Below the pieces are notes generated by a model, which saw nothing but the letters and a program-made list of their open reading frames with translations, was not told where the DNA came from and did not search any database. DNA of 64,000 nt from Squalus acanthias. Its lineage: Eukaryota. The stretch is taken from assembly GCA_030390025.1 (NCBI GenBank), contig CM059435.1, positions 14,570,001-14,634,000 on the forward strand, given 5' to 3'. Each line of letters opens with the position of its first letter. Positions within the stretch are counted from its first letter, which is position 1. A program made the position numbers and the translations under genes. Positions 1 to 58,850 of the stretch are shown here, piece by piece.

Positions 1-1953
1 TTCAGTGTAAAGTCACCTCATACTGGTTTAAAGTTACATCAAGTGCAGTAAAATCCTACCTTTAGTCACAACAGAATCTCGATTGCAGTGCATCAAGAAG
101 CTCAAACTTGATATGAAACCCTAAAAATTCCTCGCAAATCTGTACAATTTATACTGGACAATGTATAAATTTTGAAAACTTTTATTCCTGTTGCAGCCAT
201 GGAAGGAGCCAAGTTATGCTGATGAATCCAATCAGACTGAATCAATCCAAACCATTCACCACTCAGACCATTGTAGAAACTGAATTCTTTTCACAAAAAA
301 CTGAAAATTCACTTCAGCAAAACCTTTATTCAAAAGGAAAGGCACTATAGTTGAACAGGACTGGAAAATTCCACTTGCTACCCACCAGAAGTGGGTAATT
401 TTCCAACTCAAACTTAGAAAAAAAAAGCCATTTCCAGTTCTTCCAAACAATCAATTTACTTCTCCCTCCATATCCAATGCTTCAACAGTGAAGTCAGACA
501 AACGGGAACAGGTATAATGGCATCAAAAAAAGGTCTGAGTCTTCAACTCCTTGCTGCCCATTGTACCTTTGCCCTTGTAACTTCAGTAATAAATCTGTGC
601 AGCATGGCAATCATGTGCCTTATTTAGATTCTAATTCAGCTAAGCCAAAATATCTGCTTGGAACATTAAATGATTAGAGCTCTGCTGCTACACCAAGACT
701 CCAAGTTGGCCAAGATTCACTAAATATCTAGATCCAAACCAATCAGAATCCAAATCACCAAACATACATGGGGTTTCACTCAAATCCCACATGCAAAGAA
801 AAATGGCTACCTTCCCCCAACCACTTTTCTACCCAACCGTAGCCGGTCAGACCCTTTGCAGCAGGTTTTCCCTATTTAACTTCCAATTATGTGGGAAACA
901 GACACAACCGTATACATATAAACATCTCTGTATAAACTATTTATAATCTCTACTCTTTGGATCAATATATGTCCGACATTAAATACGGCATTAGTCATTA
1001 TTTAGGTTTCAACTTCACCAACTAAAACTTCTGGTTTCCATGCCGATAATGTAGCTTAAGTGAATTTTAAAAATAAATTCTACCTGCTAATTGGTGAGCA
1101 ACTTCCAGCAGCATTACTCAGCAATGTTGCTCAATGGTAATGGACTTTTAACGAATGTGTGCAGTGTACACACAAACTTTTAAAAATAGATATTCAGTGC
1201 AGCCAACCAAGGTCACTCGCTGTTGCAGTCTCCGGAAAAGCAGGCTGAACGGCATAACATTCTCAAATACATACATGTTCCCTTCAGGAGTCTTATCAAT
1301 TTAAAATTAAAAAAACAAATCCTAATAAATCATTAACCTAATTGCTGCTGCAGTTAACAAACTTAAAAGTGCAATGGTTTTGAAATTTGTGTAGCCCCAC
1401 ACTAGGCACTTTACTTTTGTAAAGTTTATTTTCAGTAATCTCTCATTGAACTTTCACTTTTTTTTAAAAAAAACCTGGTTAAAAACTGCGGTCTGGATGA
1501 TAACTTGCCTAAAGACTTCCAACTGCGCAAACAGGGTGTACTGCAAACTCCTGACTGCATAAAATAGCCCATAACTCAGATGAAATCAAGGGCCCCACTG
1601 CAGGGGGCTTGGTATAAATTGTTAAGTGGCAATATTTCAGTGAGTGAACATACAGAGCACGAGTTATGATTACATTCACTTATTTCAATGAGTACAACTT
1701 ATCTTTGGATAATTATACAAAGCAAAGAACACACCACACTTCCCCACATTAGTAGGTTGACTTACTTGGCTTAAACAGTTCCAGCATTTCTGACTTAGAG
1801 CCTGTTTAAACCTTTCACAGCTCTGTTTAAAAGTCTCATTGCCCTGGCAGCATTCTTGCACTAAAAAGCTTATCTCTCTCTCCAACTCCCATGTGTACAA
1901 AATAATTCCCAATACAATGGGTGTGAGATGTTTTCTGATTACCTAGACAAGCT

Positions 1954-3941: not shown

Positions 3942-4013
3942 ATTTAACACACTGCATTCCAAACTTGCCCGTGTGTGCTGCAATTTTAATTCCCGGGTTT
4001 TCGGGAATATCGA

Positions 4014-19745: not shown

Positions 19746-20040
19746 CAGCATACTTGTGAAAGCCAACCCCATTGGGTGATAAAAATTGGGGGGGGAAGCA
19801 AAGTAGGTAGAATGCCCACTCTAGATAACTACGATTATGATAGTTAAAATCTGTTAATGTGATGGAGAATGCTTGCAGAGTAAAGAAAGCATAAATTCAT
19901 AACTGGGCTATTCTGCCTTTTATAATGACCATAATATATTTTCTTTGCACTGGAAGCTATTGATTGCAAACAATCTGTTCATCACAGATATTACTGCACG
20001 AGAATACTGCATTTTCAGATGTGTTTCAGATAATATATTT

Positions 20041-20428
20041 GGGTACGGTGGTGTAGTGTTTCTTTTACTTAACTAGTAATCCAAAGGCCTGGATTAATAA
20101 TCCAGAGAACATGAGTTCAAATTCCACCAGGGCAGTTAAAAAAAAAATCAGGAAATAAAAACCTGGTATCAGTTTAAAAAAAGTGACACCATAAAGTTAT
20201 CCCATTGTCATATAAACCCAACTGGTTCACAATGTCCTTTAAGGAAAGAAAACCTGCCGTCCTTACCCGGTCTAGCCTGTATGTGACTCCAGTCCCACAC
20301 CAATGTGGTCGACTCTCAGCTGCCCTCTAAGGTAGCCTAGCAAGCCACTCAGTTGTATCAAACTCAGCTCAACTAGGAATGTGCAATAAATGCCGGCCTT
20401 ATCAGCAATTCCCACATTCCGAGAATTA
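20041..20428 (+). mobile_element. tRNA-headed bipartite SINE related to the LINE at 4241-6546
   Basis: A-box-like TGGTGTAGTG and B-box-like GAGTTCAAATTCC; body matches LINE 6300-6510 and tail matches LINE 4250-4320. Confidence 0.75.
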
Positions 20429-20650
20429 ATCGTTTTAAATTAAACAGAAAATCTGTCTACCCATACAGGTTACAGGTTCCATAGCACTATTCCGGGCCAA
20501 CATACTGTCCTTAACCAATAGCATTAACACAAACAAATTAACTAGTCAGTCATTCATTTCAATACAGTATGTGGGATGCTGCTGACGCAATGACTGCCAG
20601 GTTCAACTACACAACAAAAGTCACTGCACTCCAAAGTAATTCATTGTATG

Positions 20651-21644
20651 AAACATAGAAGATAGGAGCAGGAGTAGGTCATTCGGCCCCTCGAGCCTGC
20701 TCCGCCATTCGATGAGATCATGGCTGATCATCCAAACTCAGTACCCTGTACCTGCCTTCTCCCCATATCCCTTGATACCTTTAGCTTTAAGAAATATATC
20801 TAACTCATTCTTGAATATATTTAATGACTTGGCCTCAACTACCTTCTGTGGTAGAGAATTCCACAGGTTCACCACTCTCTGGGTGAAGAAATTCTTCCTC
20901 ATTTCTGTCCTAAATGGCTTACCCGTTATCCTTAGATTATGACCCCTGGTTCTGGACTCTCCGACCATCGGGAACATTCTTCCTGCATCTAGTTTGTCCA
21001 GACCTGTCAGAATTTTATATGTTTTGATGAGATCCCCTCTCATTCTTCTATACTCCAGCGAGTATAAGCCCAATCGACCCAATCTCTCCTCATACGTCAT
21101 TCCTGCCATCCCAGGTAGCAGCCTGGTGAATCTTCGCTGAACTCCTTCCATGGCAAGAACATCCTTCCTCAGATAAGGCGACCAAAACTGCACACAGCAC
21201 TCAAGGTGTGGTCTCACCAAGGCCCTGTACAACTGCAGCAGGACATCCCTGTTCCTATACGCAAACCCTTTCGCTATGAAGGCCAACATACCATTTGCCT
21301 TCTTCACCGCCTGCTGCACCTGCATGCTTACTTTCAGCGACTGGTGCACAAGGACACCCAGGTCTCGTTGCACTTCCCCTTCTCCCAATCTATTGCCATT
21401 CAGATAATAGTCTGCCTTTCTGTTTTTGACACCAAAGTGGATAACCTCGCACTTATCCACGTTATATTGCATCTGCCACGCTTCTGCCCACTCACCCAAC
21501 CTGTCCAAATCATCCTGGAGTTTCTCGGTATCCTCCTCGCAGCACACACTCCCACCCAGCTTTGCGTCATCTGCAAACTTGAAGATATTACATTTAGTTC
21601 CCTTATCTAGGTCATTAATGTATATTGTGAATAGCTGGGGTCCA
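20651..21644 (-). mobile_element. Young 5'-truncated CR1 LINE inserted in an old Deu-SINE tail
   Basis: Uninterrupted 269-aa ORF 20738-21547 (LQDDLDRLGEWA..WQMQYNVDKC..LVRPHLE..RRMRGDLI..TRGH), preceded by KFADD; CR1 3' UTR. SINE sequence at ~20470-20650 resumes at ~21646-21692. Confidence 0.92.
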
Positions 21645-22830
21645 AGTGCTTTGAAGCATGTCTATGTGGTAAGGCACTATAAAAATACAAGTGTTATTAG
21701 ATCACCACAATCCTCAAAGAAGTTCAATCTTTACCCTATACAGAATCTTCAGGAGTACTGCCTCCAACCCACACAAAGAGACAATTCTCAGATTCCAGAC
21801 AGACAAGAGTTCTGGGATTTTCTGTAATCGCCTATTGATAGAATTCAAAAATTTGCATTCCTTGCAAACTTTCCAAATACATAAAATTAGCAATATAAAA
21901 AGCATTAGATAGACGATAGACTTTCGATAGCTACATGAATTAGGCACAGAAATATCAATTTCTAATGCCCGCCCCGGGTCCACCACACCACCCCCCCCCC
22001 CCAAAGCAAAATGCACACAAATCATTTTTCCACGCAGTGAAAGAGTTTAATGAGAGTGCTAAAGTACAGTAGAAATACTGAAAATCAGCATTATTGAGGA
22101 ACTAGCCGTAAAATTGTAAGAAAGACAGTGCCGTCAGACGTTTAAAAAAGTGGAAAGTTACAAAGAGCACTTAACTTGTACACAGAAGAATACTTCTTAC
22201 AGTTTAGGTTGGACGTGATTGTGGCAACACTCGTGTAACCTTAACACAGACCGTGCCATATGATACCGTGGTGGAAGTAGAATTTTGCCATGCATCAGAA
22301 ACAAGGAAAAATTCTAAATTATATCTATTGCCTATGACTCTAGATAGAGACAGCAATGCGCTTTAAAGAGAAATAAAATGATTCTTAAAAAATTCTATTT
22401 CTCGGATCACAAAAGCAGCCAACATACAAATCTTTCCTGATTCAGGTGCATTTCAATAATATTTGCATGTCCTTGGTGCTTTTCCTCAGTATTGTTGCCT
22501 GTATTCAGAAATTAGTAGTGTCAGAAGATTACCTAATGTCTTGGTAATTCCCATTTCAGGTGTTAATGGCTACAAATTTGCAGATCGAGGGAAACTGAAA
22601 TTCATGATTTCTACTCTAAACCCTCAGTGGTTACCTCAAAAGGAACGCAGTTAATGCCATCCTCCATTCAGGGAGTTCAATATTTTTGGAGTTCAGTTCA
22701 TTTTGTTGATTTGCCACTTGGGACTCTGGACAGTCGGCACCCTATTGCCTCACCCATGTACACATATCATTGTGAAGTCTGCTTTTCTCCCAAAGTCTTA
22801 CAGATTATCAGACTGAAATACATTCCGAAG

Positions 22831-23053
22831 ATAAAAATAGAAAATGCTGGAAATACTCAGCAGGTCAGGCAGCATCTGTGGAGAGGGAAACAGAGTTAAT
22901 GTTTCAGGTCGATGACCTTTCGTCAGAACTGGTCTTCGACCTGAAACGTTAACTCTGTTTCTCTCTCCACAGATGCTGCCTGACCTGCTGAATATTTCCA
23001 GCATTTTCTGTTTTTATTTCAGATTTCCAGCATCCGCAGTATTTTGCTTTTGT
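22831..23053. mobile_element. Fold-back pair of Penelope-type terminal repeats with a hammerhead-like core
   Basis: 22831-22912 is nearly the reverse complement of 22937-23018; the minus strand reads CTGACGA-A-AGGTC-ATC-GACCT-GAAA. The Penelope assignment is from recalled family knowledge. Confidence 0.7.
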
Positions 23054-23159
23054 ACATTCTGAAGATGATATTTTAGAAGATTTGAGTACTGATTCAATAT
23101 TTGTTTTCCAAGTAGTTGTACCAGCCTTTCTTATAAAAAAATCCTTACTTATAATGGAT

Positions 23160-23863
23160 TAGTTTGGAATGAAAGTTCTGGCGTCCTGACATGCGCAGTT
23201 AAATGTGGAAATCCGGAAGCTGCTGTCCAATTTGCCCTGCTCCTCCACAAGCTTTGCTACATCCGTACCTCACCGATAGACTCGACATTAAAGTACATGA
23301 AGGGCATGAAATTACTGTACTTACCCACTAGTTACCCCCTAAACACGCCAGAAAAAGTGAGGGCTTGTGCATTCAGCTGTAAGTGAATTTTTAAACGGCA
23401 TGATAAATCTTAATTATTGCCAAACAATCTCTCTGGCCCTGGAGATTTACTTTTACAGGTGTGGAGTCTCATGCCTTCAAATTTTAATAATTGTTGGAAA
23501 AAAAAAAAATTTATTTTTTTTATTTGAATGTTTTTTCCACGTTTCTTTATCTGTTTTATCTCCCTCAATCCCATCTTTCTTTCCCTCATTTTATTTTGTT
23601 TTCGTACATGATTTTACATTGAATTAAATATTCGAATTTCGAACCAACTCAGTGAGAATTCTTCACTCTGATTGGTTGAAGATACACACTGTTGCTTGCC
23701 CTGTTCACACACCCCACAGATCCCCAGTAGAGGGTGCCGCACTGAAAAGGATCCAGAGTAACCGCAAGTTGCCGCTCAAAAACCCACAAAAAGTCAGTGA
23801 GCAGCTGTAAGCGTAGTGATCGGCGAGCGACGTTCCTTCGCCACAGACCACAAAATCCGGGCC
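23160..23863. mobile_element. Non-autonomous DNA transposon (Harbinger-type MITE), left end eroded
   Basis: Right end ..AAAATCCGGGCC; internal similarity to 41520-41860. Confidence 0.55.
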
Positions 23864-25289
23864 AATGTGAAGTGTGGTATTTACCTCTTTTTGGAGTAGA
23901 TAGGAGAGTATGGTGGACATCCCATGTGGTCTCTGTTGTATCAAATCATAATTAAAGCGTAATAGTTAGTACTGTGGCATGCTTTGCCATTTATAGCATG
24001 AAAAAGGGCAGAGCTTTCAGTTGTGTCTACTTATCGAAGCTACTTTTCGACTGTGAACCCAAGTTAAAAGTGTTGCAAGGAATCTGCAAAGAATACAACA
24101 AAAACTGTCTGCAGGAACCTCCAAATGTCAACTCTAAAAATGAACAATTCGCATTTCTCTCGGTAGATGATCACCTACTATGGAGGGCCCAAAGTTGGTT
24201 CAAAACATGGTCAACATGCTACGGTTGCGGTTCACTTGTACAGGGCCAGTGACACCATGTGTTGTGTATTAACACCTTGTACCACGAGCAGTTGAGCATA
24301 AATTCGTTTTCAATTTTAGTCTAGTGAACATGTAGGGAATGGGGAAAAGAGACAGTCACATTGATTGGAGGCAAACTAGTTTTCTAGAAGAATAGAGGGT
24401 AAAGCTGAAGGGAAAGTCCATCTGTGATCGCTTTTGTGCACTTCACAGCAGCAGGCTCTTGATCTGCATTGTAAAAGACCTCATTACACGTAGCCCATCC
24501 ACACTCAGTCACAGGAATGTTACATGAAGGGGGGGGGGGGGTGCGTGTTAAAAACAAGCCTTCACTGCTGTATGCAAGAGTTGAGTACCATAATTTATCT
24601 TCAGTTCCATTTAATGGCTTCTGCACAAAAAGTTTATTTTAATAACATATTCTGAACTGTTCACTCCCACTACATGGCGTGAGTCATCACACTAACTGAC
24701 CAGAATGGTAGAGGCTCAATTGCCTTGGATTGTCTTTAAAAGTGAACCGAACTCTGCAGTCAAACAGGATAGTCCTAGTCTGACCAGAATAAAATACATC
24801 TCTACAGTACTTTAGCTACTCATAGTCATTATGGTTTCAGAATTAAAAAGCATTTTGTCCACAATGGTTATGGTGTGGACCATCCCAGAATCTAGCAACA
24901 CTGTACATTAAAATCACTTTTTGGCTAGTGCCCTTTATTCAGACTGCAGCATTACAGAACTGTAGGAAGCCATTCAACAAAAATATTAGCAAAGCTACAA
25001 AATCTGCCACATGAACATCGATATTTTCTGAACTGAATCTCATGTAAAAAGTTGGATTCATTTTTTTTCCCGCTCGCTTTTTTGTTCCCCATTTTGTTTT
25101 GCACTCATCAGATTTTAGTGCCAGGGAGTAGAACACTCTGCATTTCAGCATCAAGTGCAGTACTCCCAAATCAGGTACAGCACTGTTAGATACCTCCATA
25201 ATTTTCCTGTTCCAATAAAGTGCCGTAGCCCAAACCTCAGAAGAGCACTCACTAATGCATTAGAGTGACATTTTCATCTCACGTCCTGA

Positions 25290-25810
25290 CTCCTCAAAAT
25301 CTCTCCTCCATCGACTCGACTCATGTCAGGATACAATGCCATACTCACTGTTCGCCCGGATGAGTGCAACTGCAGCAACACTCAAAAAGTGCAACAGGAC
25401 AGAGCAGTTCGCTTCTGGACTCAATATCCACTTCTTCCATCATAGGCAACCTACAGAATGCACAGCAGCAACTCACCAAGCTTACTTCAACAGCACCTCT
25501 CTCTCTCTCTCTCTCCCGCCCCCTGCCCCCCCCCCCTCCCCCGGAACCTCTACCACCGAGAAAGATTAAGGTAGAAACACCATCACCTTCAAACTCCCCT
25601 CCAAGTCACACAATCATCCTGACTTGGATAAATATTGCCTCTCCTTCATCATTGCTGGGTCAATGTCCTGGAATTCCCTACTTAACACCATTGTACCATC
25701 ACTCTAAAGACTGCAGCGATTCAAGAAGGCGGCCCACCACCATCTTCTCAGGGCAGCTCGAGATGGGCAATTAATGCAGCCTTGCCAGCATCACACACAT
25801 CCCAGACCAG
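25290..25810 (+). mobile_element. Older 3' fragment of the LINE family at 4241-6546
   Basis: CCCTCCAAGTCACACAATCATCCTGACTTGG..TCCTGGAATTCCCT..GAGATGGGCAATTAATGC is colinear with 4260-4750 minus. Confidence 0.7.
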
Positions 25811-28800
25811 CTTAAAAAATACACTGACCAAACACAGGACCCTTACAACCAGCAAATGAAAAGGATTCCACACCACCAATCTGGGCTAAATTTTAACCCA
25901 CGTCTAAGAGTCAAAAGCCAGTGTCTAATGGTGCTTTTCCACTACAACTGTTGCATCACTGGTACAGTTATAATGTAAATGCAGCCTGAATCCACAACAA
26001 GGAACAATTACAATCCCTGGAGGAGGTCGTCTCGATCCACTTTGGGAAATCAGCTTGGGCATCAACACCCAATTACTATTCACAAGTTTAATGTTACTGT
26101 GAAGTTGAAACAGTTCCACACTGATAAACTTTGCCTCCAATGCACCTGGGGAGCACTCAGTTCCCAAGTGCAAAAATGAGGAAATGTTGCCCCAGGACTT
26201 GAGGCTTCTATCCCATTTGGGACAACAGCTAGAGGGCCATAGCCGACAGCTATTACCACTCAAGTCTGCTTTCGGTTTCCAACGAGACAAGAGAAAATGA
26301 ATGAATAGCAGAACTTGTAATGAAGTTGAATCTATTTAAAAAATGTAATTTAATTTTCAAGAAGCAATTTTAAGATGCATTTGTTATGTACTCAATACGT
26401 GATAAGATGGTGGGGGGTGGGCAGTTACAGGCAAGATGACCACTACCACATTCCCAATGGAGAGTCCTTTCCAACTCTACAAATTAGTTGGAGGGTTAGG
26501 AACAACTATGATTACATGTAAAAGAAAGACTTGAATTTACATAGCTCCTTTCACAACCTCAGGACGTCCCAAAACGCTTTACAGCCAATGAAGTACTTCT
26601 GAAGTGTAGTCACTGTTGTAATGTAAGAAACGAATAGAAGAGTACAGCACAATTCACAGTCCCAAGAAACAGGTGAGCAAAACATGATTTTCCCCACCCA
26701 TGCAATAGGGTAAAGCAAGAGACAAAATGTTCAAAGATATGGGGTAGCATCACTTTACCAGGATGTCAGAATATTAGTTCTATCCTGTATTGCACTATTG
26801 ATCTTGGTTAGTGATATACAGGCAGAAAGAACTCAGTAAAAACACATGGATGATCATTCAAAAAGTGTCTTTAAAATCGGAGGTATGGGACTTCTCATCT
26901 CGTGAGGTCGCTTTATAAAATCTTAGTGATATTCAAGAAGTATTACAAACCACAGAATAAACAGATTAAAAACTAGAATATATTACCTTTTGTTCTTTTT
27001 CCTTAAAATATTTCAGTGAAAGAGCACTTTATTATTTTATATCTGCTCATTTCCCCCCAACCCTACACCCAATACACAATTTTATTGTTGGCACTTACAA
27101 CCAGTTGAATTCCGATAAACAGCACTTCCAGTCTGTCGCAAAAATATTTGGGAGTTCTGGATTGCGAAGTGTTCATCAACACTGGGCACCATCCATAACG
27201 TTTTACTCCAAATTGTAGCTGGATTCCTAGCCATTATTAAATTGTACGCACCAACAGAAACTTAATTGCATCATTAGGGTAGACGATAGTTGTAAATGTA
27301 CTTCTCTAGGACAAGTAATGGGCATTTTCACAAACCAAGTGGTGTATCCTGGTAGGGTTTCATAGTTTAGAATTTAACACACTGTTGCAATTATGTATCA
27401 ATAGCAGGGTTTTTTCCTCTCTGATAATGTCACTTGCACTTATATAGCACCTTATCATATTGAACAATCGCAAATTGCTTCCCACAAATCATTATTTTTC
27501 TTGAAGTGCACTGACCATTGTTATGGCACCTTCTCTGCTTGTCAGTCTCTTAAATTCATGAAATTTGGACGATTAACTTAACAGACATGTGAAACAAAAT
27601 CTTGTTTTTTGTAAGCAACATCTGCAGATCAAGAACTTAATGTAACCATTACAATAAGGATGTTGTGCTCCTGTGTAGATGTAAGCGCACGATGTACTTG
27701 CTTGTACACTAAGAGTTCTAAGTGTCTATATCCCATCTATATGACCCCATGATGATCTAATGTTGCAGGGGCAGTTGCTCCAGTGTTTCCAGTCTCTAAA
27801 TTTGCCCAGCAGTACAAACGGGGCAAATTAAAAATACAGAAATTCAGTTTCACAGTATTAATGGGATATCAGGTGCACCTTACTGCTTCTCTTCCTCCTT
27901 CATATGGGACCACAGAATGGTCTGAGCCTAGGAATACAAAGCTCACCTTATGCTAATTAAAGATGAAGTCCAAGACATAAAATAGACAATGGCCACTGCC
28001 TGGGTCACTCCATTAACTGTTTTAAGGACTATAGTGGCAATATTATTAATTAATGCAGTCTTTTGTTTTTGAGATACAGCCTTGTTCTGACCCAAAATAA
28101 CTTGAAGCATAATAGAATTATTTGAATACTTTATGGGAAAAATAGATACCCAATAAAAATAAAATGGCATCACATTCGGTTAATCAAGCACCTTACACAA
28201 AGCACCTTCTGTACAAAAACTTGAAAGTTAGTGATGCTTTGACAATAGTAGATTACTGTACTATTTAAAAAAAAACACTCTTTCCCCTTTCCCAAAAGGT
28301 TTTTGAAGCCTCAACCCCTAGATCTCAGGTGCACAGGACAGAAAGAAGCGTTCAGTACTAGTCAGAAAGTCTCATTCAAGGGAAATTGAAATGTTACAAT
28401 GATTCAGTAACATTTCTTTTTTGGGGGTGGGAAGGGGGTAGTAGTTTGATGATGGGATGCTGTTGGGGACTTTTACCATACATCGACCCTCTGTTATACT
28501 GAGCTGGTGAGTTCCGGATGCAAACAGTGGCGAATGTCTGTTACCAACCAATTATCTCCCTCACAAATTTTCTTTGTAAAGTAAAATTTACTAGTAAAAT
28601 ATATCATAATAAATTGGCAGCTTCCCAAAATGGACCCCTAATCCAACCTTAAAAACCCTCTTGTTTTACTCCAATTAGAAAAATCCTATTCATTGGACAA
28701 ATACGACCTCAGACTCATTTAAATAATAAAGACCAAAATTTATCAACCTTACATGGGGGGGCGGGGGGCGATAATCAACAGAGAGAAATTAAATAAATTG

Positions 28801-29869
28801 CTTTTAGCCATTTGGCTAATGGTAGCTTAAATCATTTAGTAGTTTTTGCAGCTGAGGACAACTCTTGGATTTTTTTAATGCACATCAGCCCTATCCCACA
28901 TGTTCAACCCCAATTTCGCTGAAGCAGCACTTCTCCATGCAGTTTTCTTTACACTGTCAGCTATTTACACAGCTAAGCAGATTAAATATTTGCTCAACAA
29001 GACCTACAATGGCCCTATGCAAAGCTCAAACACTAACAAAATAACTACACATATCCAACATCAGCGTGCATCTCATTACCTGATCTAAAACAAGGTAACG
29101 GGTTCCATGATCTCTGTTTTCAGGATCTTTGACTGCAAAGTGAAATTCAATTCCCGTGTACGGCGCAGCACTCAGCCTCATTAGATACCTTCATCTTTTA
29201 CAAAAGTTCTGCCCTCCTATAAAAATTAACTAATTGAAATTGTATTTTATCTGCACCAGTGGAGTGAGATGTGCTGTATAGTAAAAGAATGTTCAAATCT
29301 TTATTCCAAAAATCTTGTCTGCATATTTCAAATGAATCTCTCATTATATAAGTTTGCATCTTAATAGTTTAAGTTCAATATATAATATGTACAAATCCAC
29401 CAAATTAATTAGTATTGTACATTTTGGTTGGGGAAAAATAATAAAAATAAGGTGGGCAAGTGATCCAAGTTCTTGCTACTTAACAGTCAGTCATGAAGCA
29501 ACATTAACTGCAGCCTAAGGGCACCTCCCCACCCCTTCTGCCAAGAAACTGTGAAGGGAGGGGGAAAAAATGCATAATGCCCGTGGGTACAGGATGTGAG
29601 GACTATATCCTGGGTACCTACAACTTTAGTCAAAAGTAAACCGTAATCAGATTAACTGAAATATAACCTGTTAAACTGCATGGATTCTGAACCAGAGACT
29701 TCAATTTAAACTGATATAAAAATATCCTAAATTTAAGAAACTATGCCCTTCCCTCCAAAAATATAGATTTACCTTAGTTTATGGTAAGTTTTTCCATCTA
29801 CTAAAAGCTCTTCAACAGAAACTGCCAATTTGGATGGAAGAGGAAAAGCAGCTCAGACAAAGCAAACGA

Positions 29870-30100
29870 TTGCAAACTAGATGTTAAGATCTGGAATGCA
29901 CTGCCTGAAAGGGTGGTGAAAGCAGATTCAATAGTAATTTTCAAAAAAGGGAACTGGATATATACTTGAAAAAGGAAACATTTGCAGGGCTATGGGGAAG
30001 AGCAGGGGAGTGGACTAAGTGGATTGCTCTTTCAAAGATCTGGCACAGGCACAATGGGCCGAATGGCCTCATTCTGTGCTGTACAATTCTATGATTCTAG
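29870..30100 (+). mobile_element. CR1 3' end
   Basis: TGGAATGCACTGCCTGAAAGGGTGGTG..GGGCCGAATGGCCTC..TTCTATGATTCTA tail; similar tail at ~14435-14545. Confidence 0.8.
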
Positions 30101-33100
30101 ATATTTTGGAACCAATAAACCTGGTCATTTCAGAAAACTGAGCAGCTCATTTTTAGGTTAAAAAGACAAATATACTTAATGCTATCTTATCATATTCACA
30201 TAACCAACAAAGCATAGTAGCCCCACAAGACACACAACACTGCTTCACTGAAACAAAACACACTTTTGTTGTACATTTTTAAACCCTACTGTGTATACGT
30301 TACATAATGTTCAAATTGTGCAGCGACTTGTAAACAGATTTGTGCATGTGCAGGGAGCAGGTATACTGTGCTCTTTCTCTTCAAACTACAAAATTGTTAT
30401 AAATAGCATTACAAGTAATCGTGGACAACTAATATGTCGAATGCAATGCAGCACACATACACAGCGTATACCGCAAACAGATTATTTTTCATGTATGTAC
30501 ATTATATGACAGATTCATTGTTCAGTAAAACAAATCCCTTACTGTACCGGCTGTAGCACGCTGCAGAAATTCAGATACACTTGTGCATAATCTGTTATGG
30601 AGGACATATTAAGTCAACCATTTCACAGGCTCGCACTTATTTTTAAATGCCAGGAACAGTACATAAGTGTGAAGCAACCCAAGGAAGGAAACAGGAGAAA
30701 ATAGTTTACAAAATGGGGGCTGAGATGAGAAAGGTGCAGAATTAATGTTCACCAACTGCTCATTTAGCTTTAATAGCCACAAAAATTGTAATTTTTTAAT
30801 GTTAAAATGGCTACAATGATATTAAAATGTACTAAATACTGCTTATTTCACAATATTCTGCCAAATTAAAATCTGGTTCCATTTTGGTGGTGAAATGCTA
30901 TTGCATTTCTTAAAGGGTTAAATTAAGTGTTTTGGCATGGCCACTGCCAACTGTACATGAAAAATAAAAGCAATATTCGTCAGTCAGATGCTAAACATTA
31001 AGTTTTAATAACTCAGACAGACCTAGTTGCCATAATAAAAACTTTTATACAGATATAATGGAGCAACACAACATATTCTAGAAAAAAACAAGCCCGTCAA
31101 TGCTGTATTGTTATTTAAAAGTCTCTTTTGTTTTGCAAACTGTAAAATTGTGCCTAGAACCCATCCCACAAGACGTCAATATTCATCGATGTGATCTTAT
31201 AAATAGAACACACTTGTACAAATTTGTAAAAAAAAAGGTCAGAGCCTATCAAAAATATTTTTCCAGCACCCACGTGGCTGCAGATACTGTAACCCAGCTA
31301 GCTCTTCTGAACTACCTCTGATAGTAACTGCAGTCAAACTAAACATTACGCGAGGTCATCTAGTGCTGTTGCTATAACAACATCCTTGGCTGTTCCAGAC
31401 TGACGCAAGAATTGTGTCGAAGTTGCAGTCAGCCGGTGGCTTGACCCAGAGTCTTTAACAACATCTGGGGGGATAGGGAAAAAAACTGACCACCGCCTCC
31501 TTAACCTGCACACAAAAATGTACAGCCGTTCCCAAACAAAAACACAGTCGGGCTAGAGGAAGAACTCCTTCTGCAAAGTGTTTTAGCAGCCACCATTTAA
31601 AAATAAACGCACACTCAGTCTCAGACTACCTACAGTGCCAGTCATGGAAGCGGTTATCAAAAATTGTAATAAAACTGTTTTATAGTTTTGTTCAGACATT
31701 TTAATAGATGCACTACTGACACCTGAAACAAAATCATATTTTCCTCCTGCAAGTATTAAAAAAAATGCCACAGCAAGTGTCCTGTGGAAAGGAAGGCAAG
31801 TTGTTTCAATCAAGGACAGGTAAGTATTGCATTCCAAATTTTGGCACTCCTCGGCACGCATATTTCACAAGCATTCACATCAAGTCCATTAAGTCTAATC
31901 TGATGTCTAAATTGGAATGTTCCTGCCTACCTCCCATTTTGTCCCCTCACTTCTTGGTATAAAGGACACAGCAAGAGACATTGTGTTCGGTTCAAATCAA
32001 CGCCATCACGAACAGTTATCGTCATCTAAATAGGCTTTTGACCCCCAAGTGTAGAATAGTTCAGTACCTTTTTTTTAAAAAAAAAACTGGCCAAACCAGA
32101 AAAGATGCTTAATGTCAGATGAGGGTTTTAAAGAGACATTGTGCACGGAAATACTGCACACTCCAGAATACCAAAAATTTAGCTCAGCATTTTTATGAAA
32201 AGTAGCTCCAGGCTCTTCGAACAGGCCTGCCAATAATGGCATCCAAACAAGATGTAGATGTCAGACCCACCAGTACGTTAGCAGCTGTCCATCAACAGGG
32301 TCTCAACAGACACACCAATGACAGCAGCTTAAGAGTGCTATCAGCAAACAAGCCAATAGCAGAAGTCCCTCAGCACGCTGTCACCAGACTCGGCGACAGC
32401 ACAGGAGCCTATCCGACTGCTGCCTGCACAGCCACAATTAGAAGCAAGCCATCAAGGAGCTGTCACGTTGAATTATCCTGCTCAACAAACAACGCTGTGC
32501 TCTTCTAATGCACAAGGTGCAGGTATAATCACCGATTTAAAATTAAAACCATTCGGCTACTACGACAACCGCCAGAAATTACAACCGAATCCAATAAATA
32601 ACCGTCACAACCCAATTAGTATTTTTTTTTTTAATTACAAAAAACATGTGGCAACAAATCATACTTGCGACCTTCTGAGCAAATCTTCCAAAAATAACAT
32701 GCAAGTAATGTATGTGTTTTAGGCACATGTGCATCATATAGTGCAAAAAAAAAATTCTGTCAGCAAGCACATAACTACATCGGTTTTACGTGGGCTCCAT
32801 ACGTAGTAAAATTCTAAACGTTCAGAATATAACATTCGAGCAAACTTATTCTTAATGATTACTATAGACAATATTTTGGATACTCTTGTTATAGCTGTAA
32901 ATATTCTGCCGATAAAAGCGATTTTCAAACTTTTCTGTGCGAGAGACCACTTACAAATATTGACACACTCTCGTCCTAATCTCTTAGACACGGTCAGCTA
33001 CCCCAAGGAAAAAGTAGCATACAGAAAATAGAAATATCATGCTAGTAAATCAACAAGTAGAGAAATACAGAAATCTGAAGCGATGGACAGAAATTGGATG

Positions 33101-33234
33101 ACCTTGGAGAATCCCTGGGATCCCCTCGGACAGCTTGGGGACTAGAATCCACAGTTTTAAAACCTATGCTCCACAATGATTTACTCCATTGCTGGGGATA
33201 TTTTCAAAAGTGTGCAACTCATCTCTTTCCCTGA

Positions 33235-33610
33235 TTCAGCAATGAGTAAATGGGCCATACGGTGTTGATTAGGAGCACCCCAGGTTCAATTCCTGGTCTA
33301 TTCTGGGTTCTCAGCCAGGGCAGAACTGGCTTCAGCAGCATCAGGGTCAAGATAGTGTGAATAAAAAGAGGATTCTCACTCCTAATTGCTATCTAGCAAC
33401 CTTATTCAAAAAGCACAGGGGCAGATGTGGACACTTTTACCCTCACAGACCAACGCCACCCCTTTCCTCCTTAACAATCACTATCCGAGTGAGTGTCCTG
33501 ACCTGACAAAACAAATAACCATTTGAATATAAAGACGATAAGCCACCAGTACCCCTGGTACCGTACCCAACATGAGTCATTTAATGACAACTAGGGTAAA
33601 GGAAAAAATG
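33235..33610 (+). mobile_element. Old AmnSINE2-like SINE
   Basis: CCCAGGTTCAATTCCTGGTCT..CTCAGCCAGGGCAG..CTCCTAATTGCTATCTAG; related copy at ~42120-42370 (+). Confidence 0.55.
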
Positions 33611-33831
33611 CAGACAAAAGCCTTAAAAAAAATACATCTGCAAATGATACCAACGTTAAGACTTTAAATGCGCACTGGACTGCACAGAAACGTGAAAACT
33701 GCCAGTAAACATGCTACTAAAAATAAAGACATTAGGATAAAGCTGTCCTAGTTACAGCCTCTCAGAGATAAGCCCGAATATACTAATTTGCAAAAAAGCA
33801 TATTCATAAACAACAAAAGCTCCAAGCATAT

Positions 33832-33985
33832 TCAGAAATAAGTTTTTAAATCGTGGCGAAACATTTAATGGGCATGTCCTCCCCCCACACACACATTCCT
33901 TTCACTGTCAGAAATAAGTTTTTAAATTTTAAACATTTAATGGGCAAGTCCTTCCCCCCCCCCCCCCACACACATTCCTTTCACT
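33832..33985. repeat. Tandem duplication of a ~76-bp unit
   Basis: tcagaaataagtttttaaat..aaacatttaatgggca.gtcct(C)n(CA)n ttcctttcact occurs at 33832-33907 and again at 33908-33985. Confidence 0.85.
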
Positions 33986-34139
33986 ATACATTACAGGCAT
34001 GCACAAGGAGCTGGGTGAGGGAGGGAAGATGACAAGACGCAGCATCAATTTTTTTTTTTAAAAAGCAACATAAAATACCATTAAAAAAATTGACAGCACA
34101 ATGAAATCAATCTCTCTGTCCCACAAACTAATGACAAGG

Positions 34140-34900
34140 GACAAAATGCTATGGCGACAGGTTGGTTGATTGACAGGGGCGGCGGCCAATGGGATGGCAG
34201 GAGAGGGGGGAGGGAACCAATGGGCGAGGGGCGCAGTGGGGGGGGCGGGACCAGCGCTGCCAAGTTCGGCCTCAGTAATTAAGTTGTCCCGGACCAAGAT
34301 TTCATGAAGAGAGAGAAGCGCGGAGGCGCCGGTCTGACCCAGGGTTCGGGGAGGCGGCACACCTCCGACGGCCTGGGCGTGTGTAAGTGCGAGGCCCGGC
34401 ATTAACAGGTTAGTTTGAGGGCGCTCGCACGTTAACTTCACTGCGGGACGGAGCTGAAGGCGCGTCGAGAGGGAGAGGAGGGAGGAGGAGGAGGAGAAGG
34501 AGGAGGAGGGGCAAAGGCTTCCCCACAAAGAGGAGGTGGAGAGCCGAGGAGGGGGGTTAAAATAAATAAAACCCTCCTCTCTCAGGCTCACCCACCCGAC
34601 ACCAACCATTCCCGCTTTCAACACCCACTTACCGCGCTGGCTGTTACTCGGAGGAACATTCCAGTATCCTGACCTTCGTTTGCCTAAATAAGCCGAGTAA
34701 AAGCGCCGCCATGTTGCTCCTTGTTTATTTAAATCTCGAACACTCCCAGGGAGGGCGGGGGGGGAGGAGGGGTGCTCACTGCGCATGCTCGCCCGAGGCC
34801 CCCGCCTGGCCTGCTGGGAGTTGTAGTCCGGCTGGCGGGGCATCAGGTGTGCAGGTGACCCCAAACAACAACACATTTGAGTGGGCACCGCAGGGAACTG
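34140..34900. promoter_or_regulatory. CpG-island promoter of a minus-strand gene
   Basis: GC/CpG-rich block in an AT-rich window. ZNF143 motif GGACTACAACTCCCAGCAGGC (34809-34829, minus), NRF1-like TGCGCATGCTC (34780-34790), GC box ~34753-34762, YY1-like AACATGGCGGC at ~34705-34715. Confidence 0.88.
34633..34760 (-). other. NCOA3: Non-coding first exon, probably NCOA3; start site approximate; followed by a long intron running to the window start
   Basis: Strong donor GCG|GTAAGT at 34633/34632. GAGT..GATTTAAA..GAG..AA.ATGGCGGCG resembles the human NCOA3 exon 1 as I recall it. Same-strand position downstream of a TRAM gene parallels the TRAM1-NCOA2 arrangement. No coding exon is in the window, so identity is inference. 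Confidence 0.55.
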
Positions 34901-34901
34901 G

Positions 34902-35030
34902 AGTGCAAAATACTGCAGATGCTGGAAATCCGAAATAACAACAGAAAACGCTGGAAAAACTCAGCAGGCGAGGCAGCATCCGTGGAGAGAGAAACAGAGT
35001 TAACGTTTCAGGTCGAAGACCTTTCATCAG
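34902..35030 (-). mobile_element. Penelope-type terminal repeat with a hammerhead-like core
   Basis: Same family as 22831-23053; minus strand reads CTGATGA-A-AGGTC-TTC-GACCT-GAAA-CGTT-AACT. Confidence 0.75.
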
Positions 35031-35134
35031 ATTTTAATTTCATTTGTTAAGTTTCATTTAATGTATTCTTGTTAAGTTACAGTTTATTCGTTTATTGATC
35101 GCACCAAAAGAGTACAACAAATTTGATCAAAGTT

Positions 35135-35500
35135 TTCAAGATATTAAGTGGGACCAGATTGGGGTAGATAGAGAGAAACTATTTCTGCTGGTTGGGGATT
35201 CTAGGACTAGAGGGGTACATAGGCTAAAAAAAATTAGAGCCAGACCTTCCAGGAGTGAAATTAGGAAACACTTCTGCACACAAAGGGTGGCAGAAGTTTG
35301 GAACTCTCTACCGCAAGAGGCAATTGATGCTCGATCAATTGTTAATTTTAAATCGGAGATTGATAGCTTTCTGTTAACCAAAGGTATTAAGGGCTATGGG
35401 CCAAAAGCGGTTAGATGGAGTTGGGTCGCAGATCAGCCTTGATCTCATTGAATGGCGGAACAGGCTCGAGGGGCTGAATGGCCTCCTCCTGGTCCTGTGT
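35135..35500 (+). mobile_element. CR1 3' fragment
   Basis: VDREKLFLLVGDSRTRG..RKHFCTQRVAEVWNSLPQ followed by a CR1 3' UTR. Confidence 0.85.
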
Positions 35501-36305
35501 TCACAACCACCGGACGTCCCAAAGCGCTTTACAGCCAATTAAGTACTTTTTTTTTTTGAAGTGTAGTCACTGTTGTAATGTAGGAAACGTGACAGTCAAT
35601 TTGCGCACAGTAAGCTCTCACAAACAGCAATGTGATAACGACCAGATTTTTTTAGTGATGTTGATTGAGTTAATAAATATTGCCCAGGTCACTGCGGATA
35701 ACTCCCCCTGCTCTTCTTCGAAATAGTGCCATGGGTTCTTTTACGTAATAGGGGAGTCTACAACAAGGGGGCACAACCATAAAATTAGGTCTGACGAAAG
35801 GTCATCAACCTGAAACGCTAACTCTGTTTCTTTCTCCACAGATGCTTCCTGACCTGCTAAGTATTTCCAGTATTTTCTGTTTTTTATTTTATACCATAAA
35901 ATTAGAGCTAGGTTGTTCAGGAGTGATGTCAGGAAGCGCTTCTTCACACAAGGGATAGTAGAAATCTGGAACTCTCTCCCAAAAAGCTGTTGAGGCTTGG
36001 TCAGTTGAAAATGTCAAAACTGAGATTGATAGAATTTTGTTAGGCAAGGCTACTAAGTGTTAAGGAGTCAAGGCAGTAGATGGAGTTAGGATATAGATCG
36101 GCTGTGATCTAATTGAATGGTGCAACAGGCTCAAGGGCCTACTCCGAGAGAGCAGACGTGGCCTCGGTTTAACATCTCATCTGAAAGACAGCACCTACGA
36201 CAATGCAGCCTAGATTTTTGTGTTCGAGTCTCTGGAGTGGGACTTGAACTCACAACCTTCTGACTCAGAGGCAAGGGTGCTACCAACTGAGCCACTGGCT
36301 GACAC
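35501..36305 (-). mobile_element. Deu-domain SINE interrupted by a CR1 fragment (~35746-36143, +), which in turn contains a Penelope-type repeat (35789-35892, +)
   Basis: SINE body stops at ..TTTTACGT and resumes at GAGAGAGCAGAC; the inner insert is flanked by accataaaattag at 35776-35788 and 35893-35905. Confidence 0.82.
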
Positions 36306-36429
36306 TCCCACGGAGGGAGGGGGGAAGGGGGATCTCACGTTCAGTACTTGGGTGATGGAGGGAGGTGGGGTGACTGCAGTAAGGGAAAAATATAATGTGC
36401 ATGGCGTTAATTGCAAGGCTGCATTCCTG

Positions 36430-36560
36430 TGCAAGGCAAAATAAAACTGCAAATCTGTAATAAGAAAGGGAAATGCTTGAAATGTGCGACAGGTCAGCCA
36501 GCATCTATATTCGAGAAAAGGCAGGTTATGACATTTTAGTTGTGTACCCTTCATCAGAAT
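36430..36560 (-). mobile_element. Older Penelope-type terminal repeat (second subfamily; another piece at ~57221-57298)
   Basis: Both copies share ggcaggttatgacatt and resemble the younger copies; decayed CTGATGA-AGGGT core. Confidence 0.55.
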
Positions 36561-36719
36561 TCAATTATTTGGGTACATGGAAGTTTTAAGTGTAGATAAC
36601 TAGGTGCATTCAATGTAAAAATTGAGTATTGAATCTGCAACAGCTCTGTGTTGGTGTTTATAATCCATTCAATCCTCCTCCCACTCTGCCCCCATATCTC
36701 TATTCCCTTCTCCTGCATT

Positions 36720-37180
36720 TATGGACGGCATTTATTTAAAGGAGTCAGGTATATTCAGTGCGAAGCATTAGATATACAATGAATTGTGGGCAGGGAATTA
36801 GGACAATGATATCAGGTATTCCAGGCACTCAATGCAGTGACAGTACATAAGGTATACAGGTGGCATTCGGGACATTGCCACTGGATGGTATGTAGAGCAT
36901 TCAGCATAGGGAATTGGGTATAGAGAGAGCATTCAGTACATAGAATCAGATACACAGTGCAGTAACAGGATATACTGGAAATATGGTATAGAGAATCAGG
37001 ACAATGCCATCAGTTATCTGTAGTATTTAGTGCAGGGAATAAGCATAGTGCCTTCATATATATGAGACAGTGGCATAAATTCTACAAATCATTCAGTGCA
37101 GGTATACAGGTGGCATTCAGGTCATTGTGTATACAGGGTATTCAGTACAGCAGTAGTGCCATCATGTAAACAGGTCAACC
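36720..37180. repeat. Degenerate minisatellite-like array
   Basis: Recurrent CATTCAGT(A/G)CA, GGGAATT and GGTATACAGG units with irregular spacing. Confidence 0.6.
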
Positions 37181-39189
37181 CTTGAGAGTCCATCCAGTTG
37201 CAAAAGTTAATTACCAGAACCTTCAAACAGGATTGCTGCCCTTGCTATATAATGGAATAGTGTATGGCATAAGGAGAACTAAATTGGAGGGCCAAAAATA
37301 ACCTAGATGAGTAGCTAGAATTTGTATCAAATAAAGATTATGAGTTTGTGTAAAGATTCATTGTCTTCTTAATGACTCAACAATAAAGGACTGATTCCAA
37401 CAAACCTGGATTAAGAGCTCATTATTTATAAATTTCACTTCAAGTAGGCATTGTGGAGCTGAGAAGAGGATTAAAAAGATTACTCCCAAAACTGATCTTG
37501 GTTTGATTGCATGTATTACTCTCGATGTGTTTTTATTTAAGTGTCAGGTTAATAATTGTTATTTTGATCCTGCAATGCTCAGATTCTATTTTTGAACAGA
37601 AGTGTTCTATTTAAATGCAGGAAGTACTGTCTATAACATGATATCACAATCATCCCAGTATTGTTTGCTCTCTTCAATGAATCACAGATCTCATAAAATA
37701 ATTAAACTATAAATATTAAAATCATCATTACAGGGAAATAACTATATGTGATATTAATGAAATACACATCTTAGGAACTGTGTGGAGGAAAATGCACATG
37801 AAATTCTAGCCTCATAATTCACTCATCCCTTATTACTCACTGATTTATGGAGTCTAGTATTACTTGTTCCCCCTCCCCACCTATATACTACCTCTACTGA
37901 TTAAGCATCCTACAAATATAAACCAGAACCTCTATTAAGCTGATTCCCAAGTTGATACAAAGAAGACATTAGTCCCAAGATCTCACAACTTCTCAGAAAC
38001 TATCTGGAGCATTGCCAAAGAATTTTCAAATTCACCATTGTAATATCAGAGAGCTTCAACCTAAATTTGAGTATAATCTCAAATCAAAGAAACCCTCTCT
38101 AACCGAGACAGAGATCACTCTGTTGATGGGAGCACCAGCTGTTCCTATGATGTCACCATAGTACTAGAAATTGAATTATTAAATTTGCAGCATGCATCTG
38201 TGTTGGTGATCTGATAATACAAATGTCAGATGGTTCACTTCTGACATGTGACAAGAAGGTTGTGAACCACCATGATTGAAATTGTAAGCTGAAGAGAGTG
38301 TAATGAGCGGCAGTCCTATGGAATTACAGAGCAAAACAGAGAGATACAGCATGAAAGATCAAGACCATAATAGCCAGGCTAAATATGAGATGGAAAAATA
38401 GGACTCCGTATAGACTAGTTTAAAACCATTTATTTAATATGTCTATATCTACGTAGCATGTAAGTGTAGTTCTATAGAAACAGGCCTCATTAAATTTGGG
38501 CATTAATTTAGAATAGAGACAGACATCTCCATTTTCCTAAGGAATCTACTACATCTCTCTCAGTTCCCTCCTCCCCATACTGAACCACCATTGCTCCTCT
38601 GACCGCACCATGCCCATTGCCCCCTTCCTCTTCTATAGTGGTTCAGGAATGCGAACAGGGATATTTTTAGCTTTAATCTCCTTTTCACATGAATGTTTCC
38701 ACTTGCCATGCATGGATTTTCAAGTGCTAAAAGGTTGGGACTATTTTAATTCCAAGCAAACGGTGTGGTTCAGAACTGAGTAACAATGTATCATTATTTT
38801 ATTAGGATAAGTCTAAATTCCAAGAGATGGTTTGGTCAGTACATTATTCAACTGGAATTTTACTCTTTAAAGTGTGCTCCAACATGCCCTGTCCTTTTCT
38901 GTCACTGATCTGCAGCAGCATTCAATAAAGTATTGTTTGTGCTCCCTACTTTTGATTTAAGAATGTCAGAAGATTGTCTGAGGTCCTATGCTTAACCCTC
39001 CACAGTTAATTAAAAAAAATTGCCTTGAAATTAAAGAATCGGATACTAAACCTACACCTGCTCTTAATCGGGTTGTGTGCATTTCCGTTCTTTGCAATTT
39101 AGTACAGGCATTAACAGGGTTAATTTAACAGCAGTATTTTATGTTATGGTAATATCCCATAGTGCATTTCAAAGCCTGTATTTGAAAAA

Positions 39190-56359: not shown

Positions 56360-58850
56360 ACGGTAATCTTGTCTCAACTATTGTGTAGCAAAGCATCCCA
56401 TGTTCCAACAACGGTAAATTATTTTTTTCCTAATTTTGTCCTTACTCTCTTAGCGACAATTTTAAACTGATGACAGTTTTTCACCGACTCCACATAACCA
56501 GTGGAAATAGTCTTTTCATATTCACCCTATTAAAACCCATCATAACTTTTAAAATCTGTATTAAAATTGCTCTTAGCATTCTCTGCTCCAGTATCTCATG
56601 TCTCTCCTCATAACTATAGTTCTTCATCCTTGGTATCATCCTGGTGAATCCATGCTGTATGCTCTTTCTGGCTTTGTGTCCTTTCGATAATGGGGCATCC
56701 AAAACTGCAAAGTACTGTTACCCAACCAATGTTTTGAACAAATTTATCATCTCTTTGCTCTTGTACTTTATGCCTCTAATTATAAAATCCAAAATGCTAT
56801 TGGCTTTTTATGGCTTTATCCAACTATACTCATACTTTCAGGGAATTTATATTTGTACCCCCTAGATCTCTCTGTTCATCCACATGCTTCATTTAGTGCA
56901 TATTTCTATTCTTTGTTTTTCCTCCCCAAAATGTATTACCTCACACCTCTCCACATTAAATTTTATGTGCCATGAGGCTGTCTATTCAACTAACCTATGC
57001 TTCTGCAGCTACAGTCTTCCTCACAGTTTTTAAGCCCCCTACTTTTGTGTCATCAACAAATTCTGATAGTGTTCCCTATAGTCTAAGTCCAAATTATATA
57101 CCAAGAATAAAAGTAGATCAAGTACTGACCCCCGCATCCAACAATTCTCCAAACCGAATAATACCCATTGACTCTAACCCTTTGTTTCCTGTCAGTCAAC
57201 CAGCTCATAACTAATTAGGCCAAAATTAAAACAGAAAGTGCTGGAAATACACAGCAGGTCCGTCAACATCTGTAAATCAAAAGGCAGGTTATGACATTAG
57301 TGATGTTAGACAAACTGGTCCATAGTGACCCAGCTTATCGTTCTCTCTCTTCTTGAACAGAGGTGTTACATTGGCTATCTTCCAGTGCACAATTTGTATA
57401 TCTAAGGAGACTTCTGCAATCTTCTCTCCAACTTCCTTCAACAGCAGAGGGTTCATGCCATCAGGATCCAGTGGTTTATCCACCTCGAGTTCTGCCAATT
57501 TTTCCTGAACCAATTCCTTTTATTAGTTATCTTGAACAATTGTTCCACATCCTCCTCTAGTACTCCTACATTCTCACTTCCACTATTATTTATAAAAACT
57601 GACAAAATATTTAATATCTGTCATTCTTCTTCCTCAATTAGATTTTCCCCATTACCTCTGAGCATTTCCACCCTCTCTAACTATTCTTTGACTTTCAATA
57701 TGTTTAGAAAAGTCCATATTATTTCATTTTATATTATCTGCTAGCCTTTTTTCATATTTCCTTTAAATCTCCATTTTTCATCTCACCACTACACTTTCTA
57801 CATCCATCATGCTTTTTTAAAGTATTGCTAGTCCTAGTTTTATCATGTGCTTTCCTCTTAGGTTTCAGTTTAATTTAAATCTTTTTTTTATTCATTGAAT
57901 AATGATGTGATGTGGGCGTCACTGGCAAGGCTGCATTTATTGCCCATCCCTAATTTCCCTTGAGAAGGTGGTGGTGAGCCACCTTCTTGAACCGCTGCAG
58001 TCCATAGAATTCTATCCTGTCATGTACTCCCTTTTTGCCTTGTAGAAATTTATCTATTTTGCACTCAGCCCATCTCACATTTGAAGATCTCCCACTACTT
58101 GTTTGCTAACGTTTCTGCCCAATTAATTTGAGCCAGGTTGCTCCTTATCTCAGGTGAACTTTGCCTTTTTCCAGTTCAGCACTCTTATCTTTAACTCTTC
58201 ATTATCCTTTTCAGTTTTCACATTGAACACAACTATGTCATGGCTACTATTTTGCAATTGTTCTCTTCCTCTCAAATCAGTTACCTGTCCAACTTCATTT
58301 CCCAGAACTAAATCAAGCAATGCTTATTTTCTTGTTGGATAAGCAACATACTAGGAAGCAGTCTTAGATGCATTCTAAAAAGCATTTCCCACCATGACCA
58401 CATACTTTACCTCCGTCTCACTTGGGATAGTTTAAATCACCCAACATATTGCCTTGCTGTTTTTAGATATCTCTCTGAACTGTTTGCAAATCTTCCCCTC
58501 TAAATCATCTCCATTGATTTTAATGGCCTGTAATGTACACCGAGAACTCTAATTTCCTCTCCTATTCCGTAATTCTATCCATGGAGATCCTGGCATATCA
58601 CAATCCCTTGGAAGATCCTTGCATTCTAGCACTGTAATAAAATCCTTTAATAATACTGCCAACCGACCCCCTTTTCCCTCCACCATCTCTCCTGAAAATG
58701 GCATAAACTGGAATATTAAGTTCCTAGTCCTGCCCAAACCTAAGCCATATCTGTTATACCAACAATATCCCGTCTTCATTATTAATTCTCCAATTTTGTT
58801 TTCAATGCTTTGTGCATTCAGATGCATAATACTTGATCCTGACTCCAATT
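56360..58850 (-). mobile_element. Old long CR1 ORF2 remnant with nested small inserts
   Basis: Endonuclease traces HLNAQSIENKIGEL and WIELRNRRG; WKIANVTPLFKK..YGPVCLTS; FTRMIPRMKNYSYEER. Confidence 0.75.

Follow-up and report, generated by a model that had tools for sequence, protein, structure and literature searches.

Minimal hammerhead motifs in the Squalus acanthias genome as probable 5'-truncated insertions of a Penelope-like retrotransposon

Damaged hammerhead insertions in the window

Here we describe short hammerhead-bearing repeats in a 64,000-nucleotide (nt) stretch of the genome of the shark Squalus acanthias (GenBank assembly GCA_030390025.1, contig CM059435.1, positions 14,570,001 to 14,634,000 of the forward strand), hereafter the window. 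The original prediction had placed four copies of a minimal type I hammerhead ribozyme core here and had suspected a Penelope-like source; all four motifs are present, and so are the lesions ascribed to them (ACAT for ACGT, an absent helix I, U16 to C, and a decayed fourth copy). A BLAST search finds six pieces of the family to which these copies belong, family A, each of which includes some portion of the 65-105 nt tail that follows the motif. This downstream continuation, together with the fold-back, the target-site duplications and the tail-only piece described below, had not been part of the earlier description. The pieces are 5'-truncated insertions of 50-130 nt that comprise the minimal hammerhead plus its tail. 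Overall, the window motifs are very probably best explained as damaged and likely inactive 5'-truncated Penelope insertions. Throughout, C3 of the hammerhead core is element position +1, and the predicted cut lies between +29 and +30.

Stubs 1 and 2 form one fold-back insertion (22833-23052). Stub 1 (22833..22932, minus strand; element -5 to about +94, C3 at 22926, short-tail end) contains a complete minimal hammerhead at 22894-22930 on the minus strand, in which a G16.2-to-A change at base 22900 gives ACAT for ACGT and the predicted cut falls between 22898 and 22897. Its inverted partner, stub 2 (22931..23052, plus strand; element +10 to about +131, long-tail end), lacks the CUGANGA box. The pair is bounded by a 14-bp target-site duplication with one mismatch between its left (22819..22832) and right (23053..23066) copies. 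Predicted folding joins the two stubs in a hairpin of about 90 bp (-147 kcal/mol, z -21) that buries the motif, and fold-back stubs of this kind may contribute much double-stranded RNA to the transcripts of the host.

Stub 3 (34905..35031, minus strand; element 0 to +126, motif at 34998-35030) is identical to an intact autonomous element at 123 of 127 positions, with core, helix II and ACGU intact; its 5' end lies 1 nt ahead of C3, so that the 5' strand of helix I is absent by truncation and not by decay. Stub 4 (35789..35892, plus strand; element about -1 to +98, C3 at 35791, motif at 35791-35824, short-tail end) has three lesions, namely U16.1 to C at 35818, a helix II G to A at 35807 and a mismatched helix I, the 5' strand of which takes its AG from the target duplication; that duplication is exact and 13 bp long (35776..35788 and 35893..35905). 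Stub 5 (36447..36559, minus strand, motif at 36523-36558) is an old, diverged copy, identical to an intact copy at 76 of 110 positions, that retains CUGAUGA and has lost the GAAA box, and stub 6 (57220..57273, minus strand) is a tail without a hammerhead core, in which +48 to +101 align. The oldest pieces (36447-36559 and 57220-57330, both on the minus strand) share departures from the consensus around the cut site, and stubs 5 and 6 likely represent an older subfamily rather than independent decay, judging from these shared changes. Two insertions thus have target duplications of 13-14 bp, and none was found for the remaining three in the window. Catalytic boxes or cut triplet are broken in stubs 2, 4, 5 and 6. 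Every window copy is damaged in one way or another, which bears out the doubt already voiced about individual activity, and it is very unlikely that any one of them is active.

Taken alone, the core pattern does not exceed chance occurrence in the window (5 found, 3.46 expected), and Rfam returned no hammerhead family there, even at E<=10. Across the 3.7-Gb genome, an exact 32-nt family A sequence occurs 38,193 times (control 0) and a tail-only pattern 39,501 times. The observation is therefore real, with a family far above chance and a genome seeded, as had been proposed, with copies in the tens of thousands. A structure-based pattern revealed a second family, B, which is absent from the window (51,268 matches, control 258; 98 of the first 100 were family B), and when further families were sought by requiring a purine at 11.1, most of the 989 matches (control 124) proved to be A or B with point mutations.

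The parent element and its hammerhead

A reverse transcriptase (RT) plus GIY-YIG frame lies upstream of the motif in 2 of the first 30 loci and ends about 280 nt before it (282 nt measured in one locus, L101). When the 5' part of this open reading frame (ORF) was used as the query, 30 loci were recovered, 21 of which continue upstream through the motif. Ten of these 21, picked for long open frames, all have the order motif, 971 codons, 282 nt, motif (10/10), with the two motifs 3,190-3,203 nt apart. The 971-residue protein carries DKG at 375, YIDD at 616, VYCI-CxxC-LYIG at 875 and histidines at 902 and 918 (CCHH), with a zinc linker, C-x4-C-x2-C, at residue 837 between RT and endonuclease; its closest named relative is a bamboo shark protein (71%). 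The frame opens at an AUG made by A6-U7-G8 inside the hammerhead core, which is missing in C7 variants, and a second in-frame AUG stands at +52, behind the cut site. Family B encodes about 890 codons from its first AUG and a protein 32% identical to that of family A; its hammerhead, which contains no AUG, is found in both pseudo-long terminal repeats (pLTRs) of intact elements at 4/4 loci, and its many near-identical open frames indicate that the family is very young.

Together with the partial tandem pLTRs, inverted 5' copies, 30-40 bp tail and 5' truncation, all of which are present, this architecture identifies the parent almost certainly as a Penelope-like retrotransposon, with the motif a minimal type I hammerhead at the pLTR/ORF junction; the Penelope origin first suggested for the motif is upheld by its linkage to the RT-GIY-YIG frame. 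DKG, the CX2-5CxxC linker and CCHH are described for the Neptune and Nematis clades in the passages of PMC8557442 used here, and by its zinc and CCHH motifs, which Nematis shares, the element likely belongs to Neptune.

The hammerhead itself is well preserved among replicating lineages. Across 17 hand-picked natural copies the CUGANGA and GAAA boxes are invariant, the cut triplet is GUU, GUC, CUU or CUC, and 98.9% of 185 cells in the helices are paired, compared with 19-44% in slid controls. Of the 11 pairs, eight change on both sides (four of four in helix I, three of five in helix II), and one helix I pair has also changed on both sides within family B, so that the pairs initially drawn in helices I and II prove to be compensated across lineages. 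Among the 16 haplotypes found at at least three places, the four helix I pairs are kept in 15, and all 16 retain a palindromic stump, U or C at position 17 and an extra A between 9 and 10.1. The stump at 15.2-16.2 reads ACGU in family A and AGCU in family B. GUU is among the usable cleavage triplets, GUC and GUA being the fastest, according to the part of PMC3138052 consulted. In silico, the family B monomer folds into a hammerhead (z -2.36), and the pair 10.1-11.1, which pairs in every case, is G-C in family B and in a minor family A subfamily (1,077 matches). We predict that the parent motif is probably a working ribozyme, assisted by dimerization or by protein.

Several results weigh against these assignments. 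For the protein, the Pfam matches to RT and GIY-YIG are weak (E 3e-4 and 6e-4, below curated cut-offs). For the ribozyme, compensation reflects mostly one split between two lineages, with few independent events, and 10.1-11.1 is mostly A-U or G-U in family A and the window copies instead of the conserved G-C. In silico, the family A monomer fails to adopt the hammerhead fold (z -0.33), and a different structure is predicted for the dimer. Moreover, in inserted copies chosen by their tail alone (37 of 41, those without indels), mismatches number 10/407 in the core and 4/481 in the flank, so that the core is no better conserved than the flank. Dead insertions would be expected to behave in this way, and constraint is visible only between replicating lineages.

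Two variants of the motif deserve separate mention. In a young subfamily (L098, L100 and 9 places), intact elements carry GUC, not GUU, as the cut triplet of both pLTRs, and in a minor family A subfamily (L205, L214, L220-L221) helix II is 4 bp long with a closing G-C pair and helix I has U-G at its base. In addition, a GC-rich element with inverted ends lies exactly at the hammerhead GTT triplet in 19/30 loci, perhaps in some 1,200 copies; GTT is duplicated where both ends are seen, and the same ends occur at other sites too. Its 3-bp duplication and GGG ends are reminiscent of Harbinger-type miniature inverted-repeat transposable elements (MITEs).

Insertion junctions and a proposed mechanism

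Junctions were sampled in the first 8 Mb (family A) and 5.3 Mb (family B) of contig C1, with a perfect tail required, which favours young copies; removal of duplicates reduced 91 family A copies to 75 and 103 family B copies to 83. The 3' ends of family A fall into two groups, at +85..102 in 45/75 and at +120..140 in 25/75. Fold-backs join one short to one long tail in 16/20 cases in family A and 52/53 in family B, most with 12-15 bp duplications; three of the family A exceptions extend into the ORF, and four rows of family B represent one tandem duplication. In vitro, the Poseidon element PAc of the lizard Anolis carolinensis shows two internal RT starts, priming on both strands and a 30-40 bp tail (Frangieh et al., 2024; PMC11167929). 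The two 3'-end groups and the short/long fold-backs of the shark families would follow from two internal RT starts and two-strand priming of this kind.

At the other end, 27/75 family A copies begin at -8..+13 (0.022 versus 0.0026 per nt, p 2e-12) and 37/83 family B copies at -12..+13 (p 2e-14), in bins that were set after the data had been seen; at the front edge of the motif the density of 5' ends is about eight times the rate elsewhere in both families. Non-inverted family A copies also start there (16/57). Long copies that come in from the ORF behave differently: 0/21 stop at -8..+13 and 1/21 at -12..+13 (Fisher p 2e-4 and 1e-3), with 5' ends that spread out as far as -1029. An initiator-like BBCABW hexamer, matching the initiator consensus as given in the excerpted PMC5287114, places its A at -3 in family A and at -6 in the main family B subfamily.

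From these junctions we propose the following mechanism. The RT-GIY-YIG protein would nick both DNA strands about 12-15 nt apart, and reverse transcription would begin inside the RNA at about +97 or +133. An uncut RNA with its 5' end just ahead of the hammerhead would then yield a stub of 100-140 nt, and priming on both strands would yield a fold-back. In the parent RNA, hammerheads 3.2 kb apart may pair through ACGU and cut after GUU or GUC, probably aided by protein; dimer cleavage through the palindrome, likely with protein assistance, has been described (PMC4209133; PMC11167929; PMC6765202, the last drawn on, like the first, in extract). The cut unit may be ligated or left multimeric, and copying on such RNA would produce longer-than-unit partial tandems, for which a circular or multimeric template was likewise proposed in the sections of PMC4209133 used here. 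Since the long copies pass the front edge, their template would have continued past the RNA start, as a circle or multimer does. The resulting two-template account, in which stubs derive from the 5' end of uncut RNA and long copies from circular or multimeric RNA, is tentative, with chances a little short of even. Its fuller form is unlikely: here the junctions of both families would record a capped RNA whose 5' end is the first base of the hammerhead and which, on losing its priming tail to cleavage at the 3' hammerhead, yields stubs only, alongside a ribozyme-made circle that yields longer-than-unit copies. If true, the hammerhead would act as a switch between dead stubs and replication-competent tandems, and the junctions would be the first in-genome record of its role, which the text of PMC8557442 available to us calls unclear for endonuclease-bearing (EN+) Penelope-like elements (PLEs).

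Other aspects of the junctions speak against this mechanism. Instead of one sharp start, the 5' ends show a plateau that runs from -4 to +1 (78/100 listed copies, by eye), and a single start at -3 was rejected on this ground. The long copies come from the youngest subfamily and possibly stem from the most processive events. The footprint that cleavage would leave is absent, as starts at +28..33 account for only 2/74 copies in family A and 1/81 in family B, and only 1/30 loci from a set enriched for cut-site starts begins at +30. We accordingly rejected a cleavage footprint: about 4-5 of 100 listed matches (by eye), out of 1,971, set against 57,719 tails, amount to less than 1%. A modest excess at the cut site in family B coincides, by eye, with helix I microhomology.

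Of the alternatives, the one that fares best keeps the same element and dispenses with an RNA 5' end at the front edge: RT would stall at the folded motif, at a bound protein or at the U-rich tract just upstream, or would be captured early by priming of the second strand. The broad plateau of ends, the 38/75 copies that extend past -30 and the microhomology at many junctions all fit this explanation, which we regard as a fair but less probable account, with about one chance in three in its favour. However, long copies read through the identical sequence, with only 0-1 of 21 stopping, and helix I would presumably already be unwound by the time the enzyme reaches -3.

Slightly less probable, though still a fair rival, is that the motif is retained as a structure that binds protein or controls translation and does not cut in cells, a role that the first AUG in the core (A6-U7-G8), with the second at +52, would suit. 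The missing cut-site footprint among sampled copies and the poor predicted folding of family A agree with it, as does the work on the anole element, in which cleavage is dispensable for insertion in vitro and no reads end at the cut site (PMC11167929). Yet the two families, with different flanks and 32% protein identity, have all catalytic positions, the palindrome and a U or C at position 17 in common, the family B motif lacks an AUG, and the anole motif did cut when protein was present (PMC11167929).

By comparison, it is highly improbable that the stubs constitute a non-autonomous element of their own, such as a retrozyme, short interspersed nuclear element or MITE, that replicates as a unit. 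The very high copy number, the stubs' own target duplications and the frequent palindromes could suggest as much, but this reading is already largely refuted: 5' ends and fold-back junctions vary between copies, stub 3 matches an autonomous element at 123 of 127 positions, and the window copies lie dispersed, unlike non-LTR retrozymes, for which a tandem arrangement is part of the definition in the portion seen of bioRxiv 10.64898/2026.07.22.740005. Thus, of the 'dispersed short repeat' first described, the dispersal stands, while the free-standing repeat gives way to the truncated end of an autonomous element. Finally, domestication of dispersed intact copies as ribozymes that cut host pre-mRNAs has hardly any likelihood: with the motif fully intact in 22/75 sampled copies, thousands may lie in transcribed DNA, but every window copy is broken, the core shows neutral decay, the motif depends on a partner and no host gene was found at the window.

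Known relatives, host context and neighbouring sequences

The motif class, its pLTR location and its dispersal have already been published for the minimal hammerhead ribozymes of metazoan PLEs (Cervera and De la Pena, 2014; PMC4209133, here and below as far as the excerpted sections go). These share with the shark motif the type I fold, a 4-bp helix I, an extra nucleotide after A9, the lack of a helix III, the palindromic 15.2-16.2 and the presence in both pLTRs about 3 kb apart, and there too most copies are single and truncated, with some close opposite-strand pairs. They differ in that the shark helix II has 5 bp and that its closing pair in family A is mostly A-U or G-U instead of G10.1-C11.1. 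The shark counts, 38,193 and 51,268 matches, exceed the 4,000-9,000 of coelacanth and Xenopus, obtained by a different search method, and the results and discussion of that paper name no cartilaginous fish.

PAc resembles the shark element in that its hammerhead overlaps the ORF start, its insertions come from uncut RNA, two internal 3' ends about 35 nt apart give an optional tail, and both DNA strands are used (PMC11167929); the shark element, in contrast, has a Neptune-type zinc linker and an AUG inside the core, lost in C7 variants, and is known here from sequence, whereas PAc was assayed in vitro. With the Neptune-clade EN+ PLEs, as presented in the part of PMC8557442 used, it shares a single frame of RT and C-terminal GIY-YIG, DKG, the CX2-5CxxC linker and CCHH, as well as partial tandems, an inverted 5' copy and a tail at one end, but shark copies have clear 12-15 bp target duplications and the window copies no evident microsatellite targeting. 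The non-LTR retrozymes have in common a type I hammerhead and Penelope pLTR ancestry, and one chondrichthyan genome is reported among them in what was seen of that preprint; theirs, however, are tandem non-coding units, whereas the window copies are single or inverted pairs and their parents are coding. Our literature searches turned up no description of these shark families or of the 5' pile-up; repeat libraries lay outside this search, and the families may already be catalogued there. As a finding, a further genome in which Penelope minimal hammerheads occur in high number is ordinary. The value lies in the data set: two young families, in which intact copies are numerous, provide junctions by the tens of thousands, and on these the start-site, stall and circle models can be tested.

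The suggestion that some copies lie in host pre-mRNA sense was not borne out, as no host gene was found around them. A scan of 34/43 window frames of at least 110 amino acids gave only long interspersed nuclear element (LINE)-type RT and endonuclease matches, and none of the matches listed among assembled contigs of putative RNA runs showed a spliced joint over 19,000-38,900. Such contigs show presence, not ends or strand, and their depth over the motif reflects copy number, not expression. In Drosophila Penelope, a pyrimidine tract followed by AG serves as a splice acceptor. A corresponding acceptor just before the shark motif is not supported, given that no splice-type joint appeared in four contig sets and that family B lacks the AG.

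Beyond the right end of the window, at a distance of 4-6 kb, is an almost complete but frameshifted family A element (L036:3749-6197), and at another locus an uninterrupted 555-codon frame, HSP70-like by eye, adjoins Penelope pieces (L033:5995-7659, plus strand). Within the window, LINE-type RT and apurinic/apyrimidinic (AP)-endonuclease fragments occupy 5044-6176 and 20738-21661, both on the minus strand, and the window is otherwise rich in other dispersed repeats.

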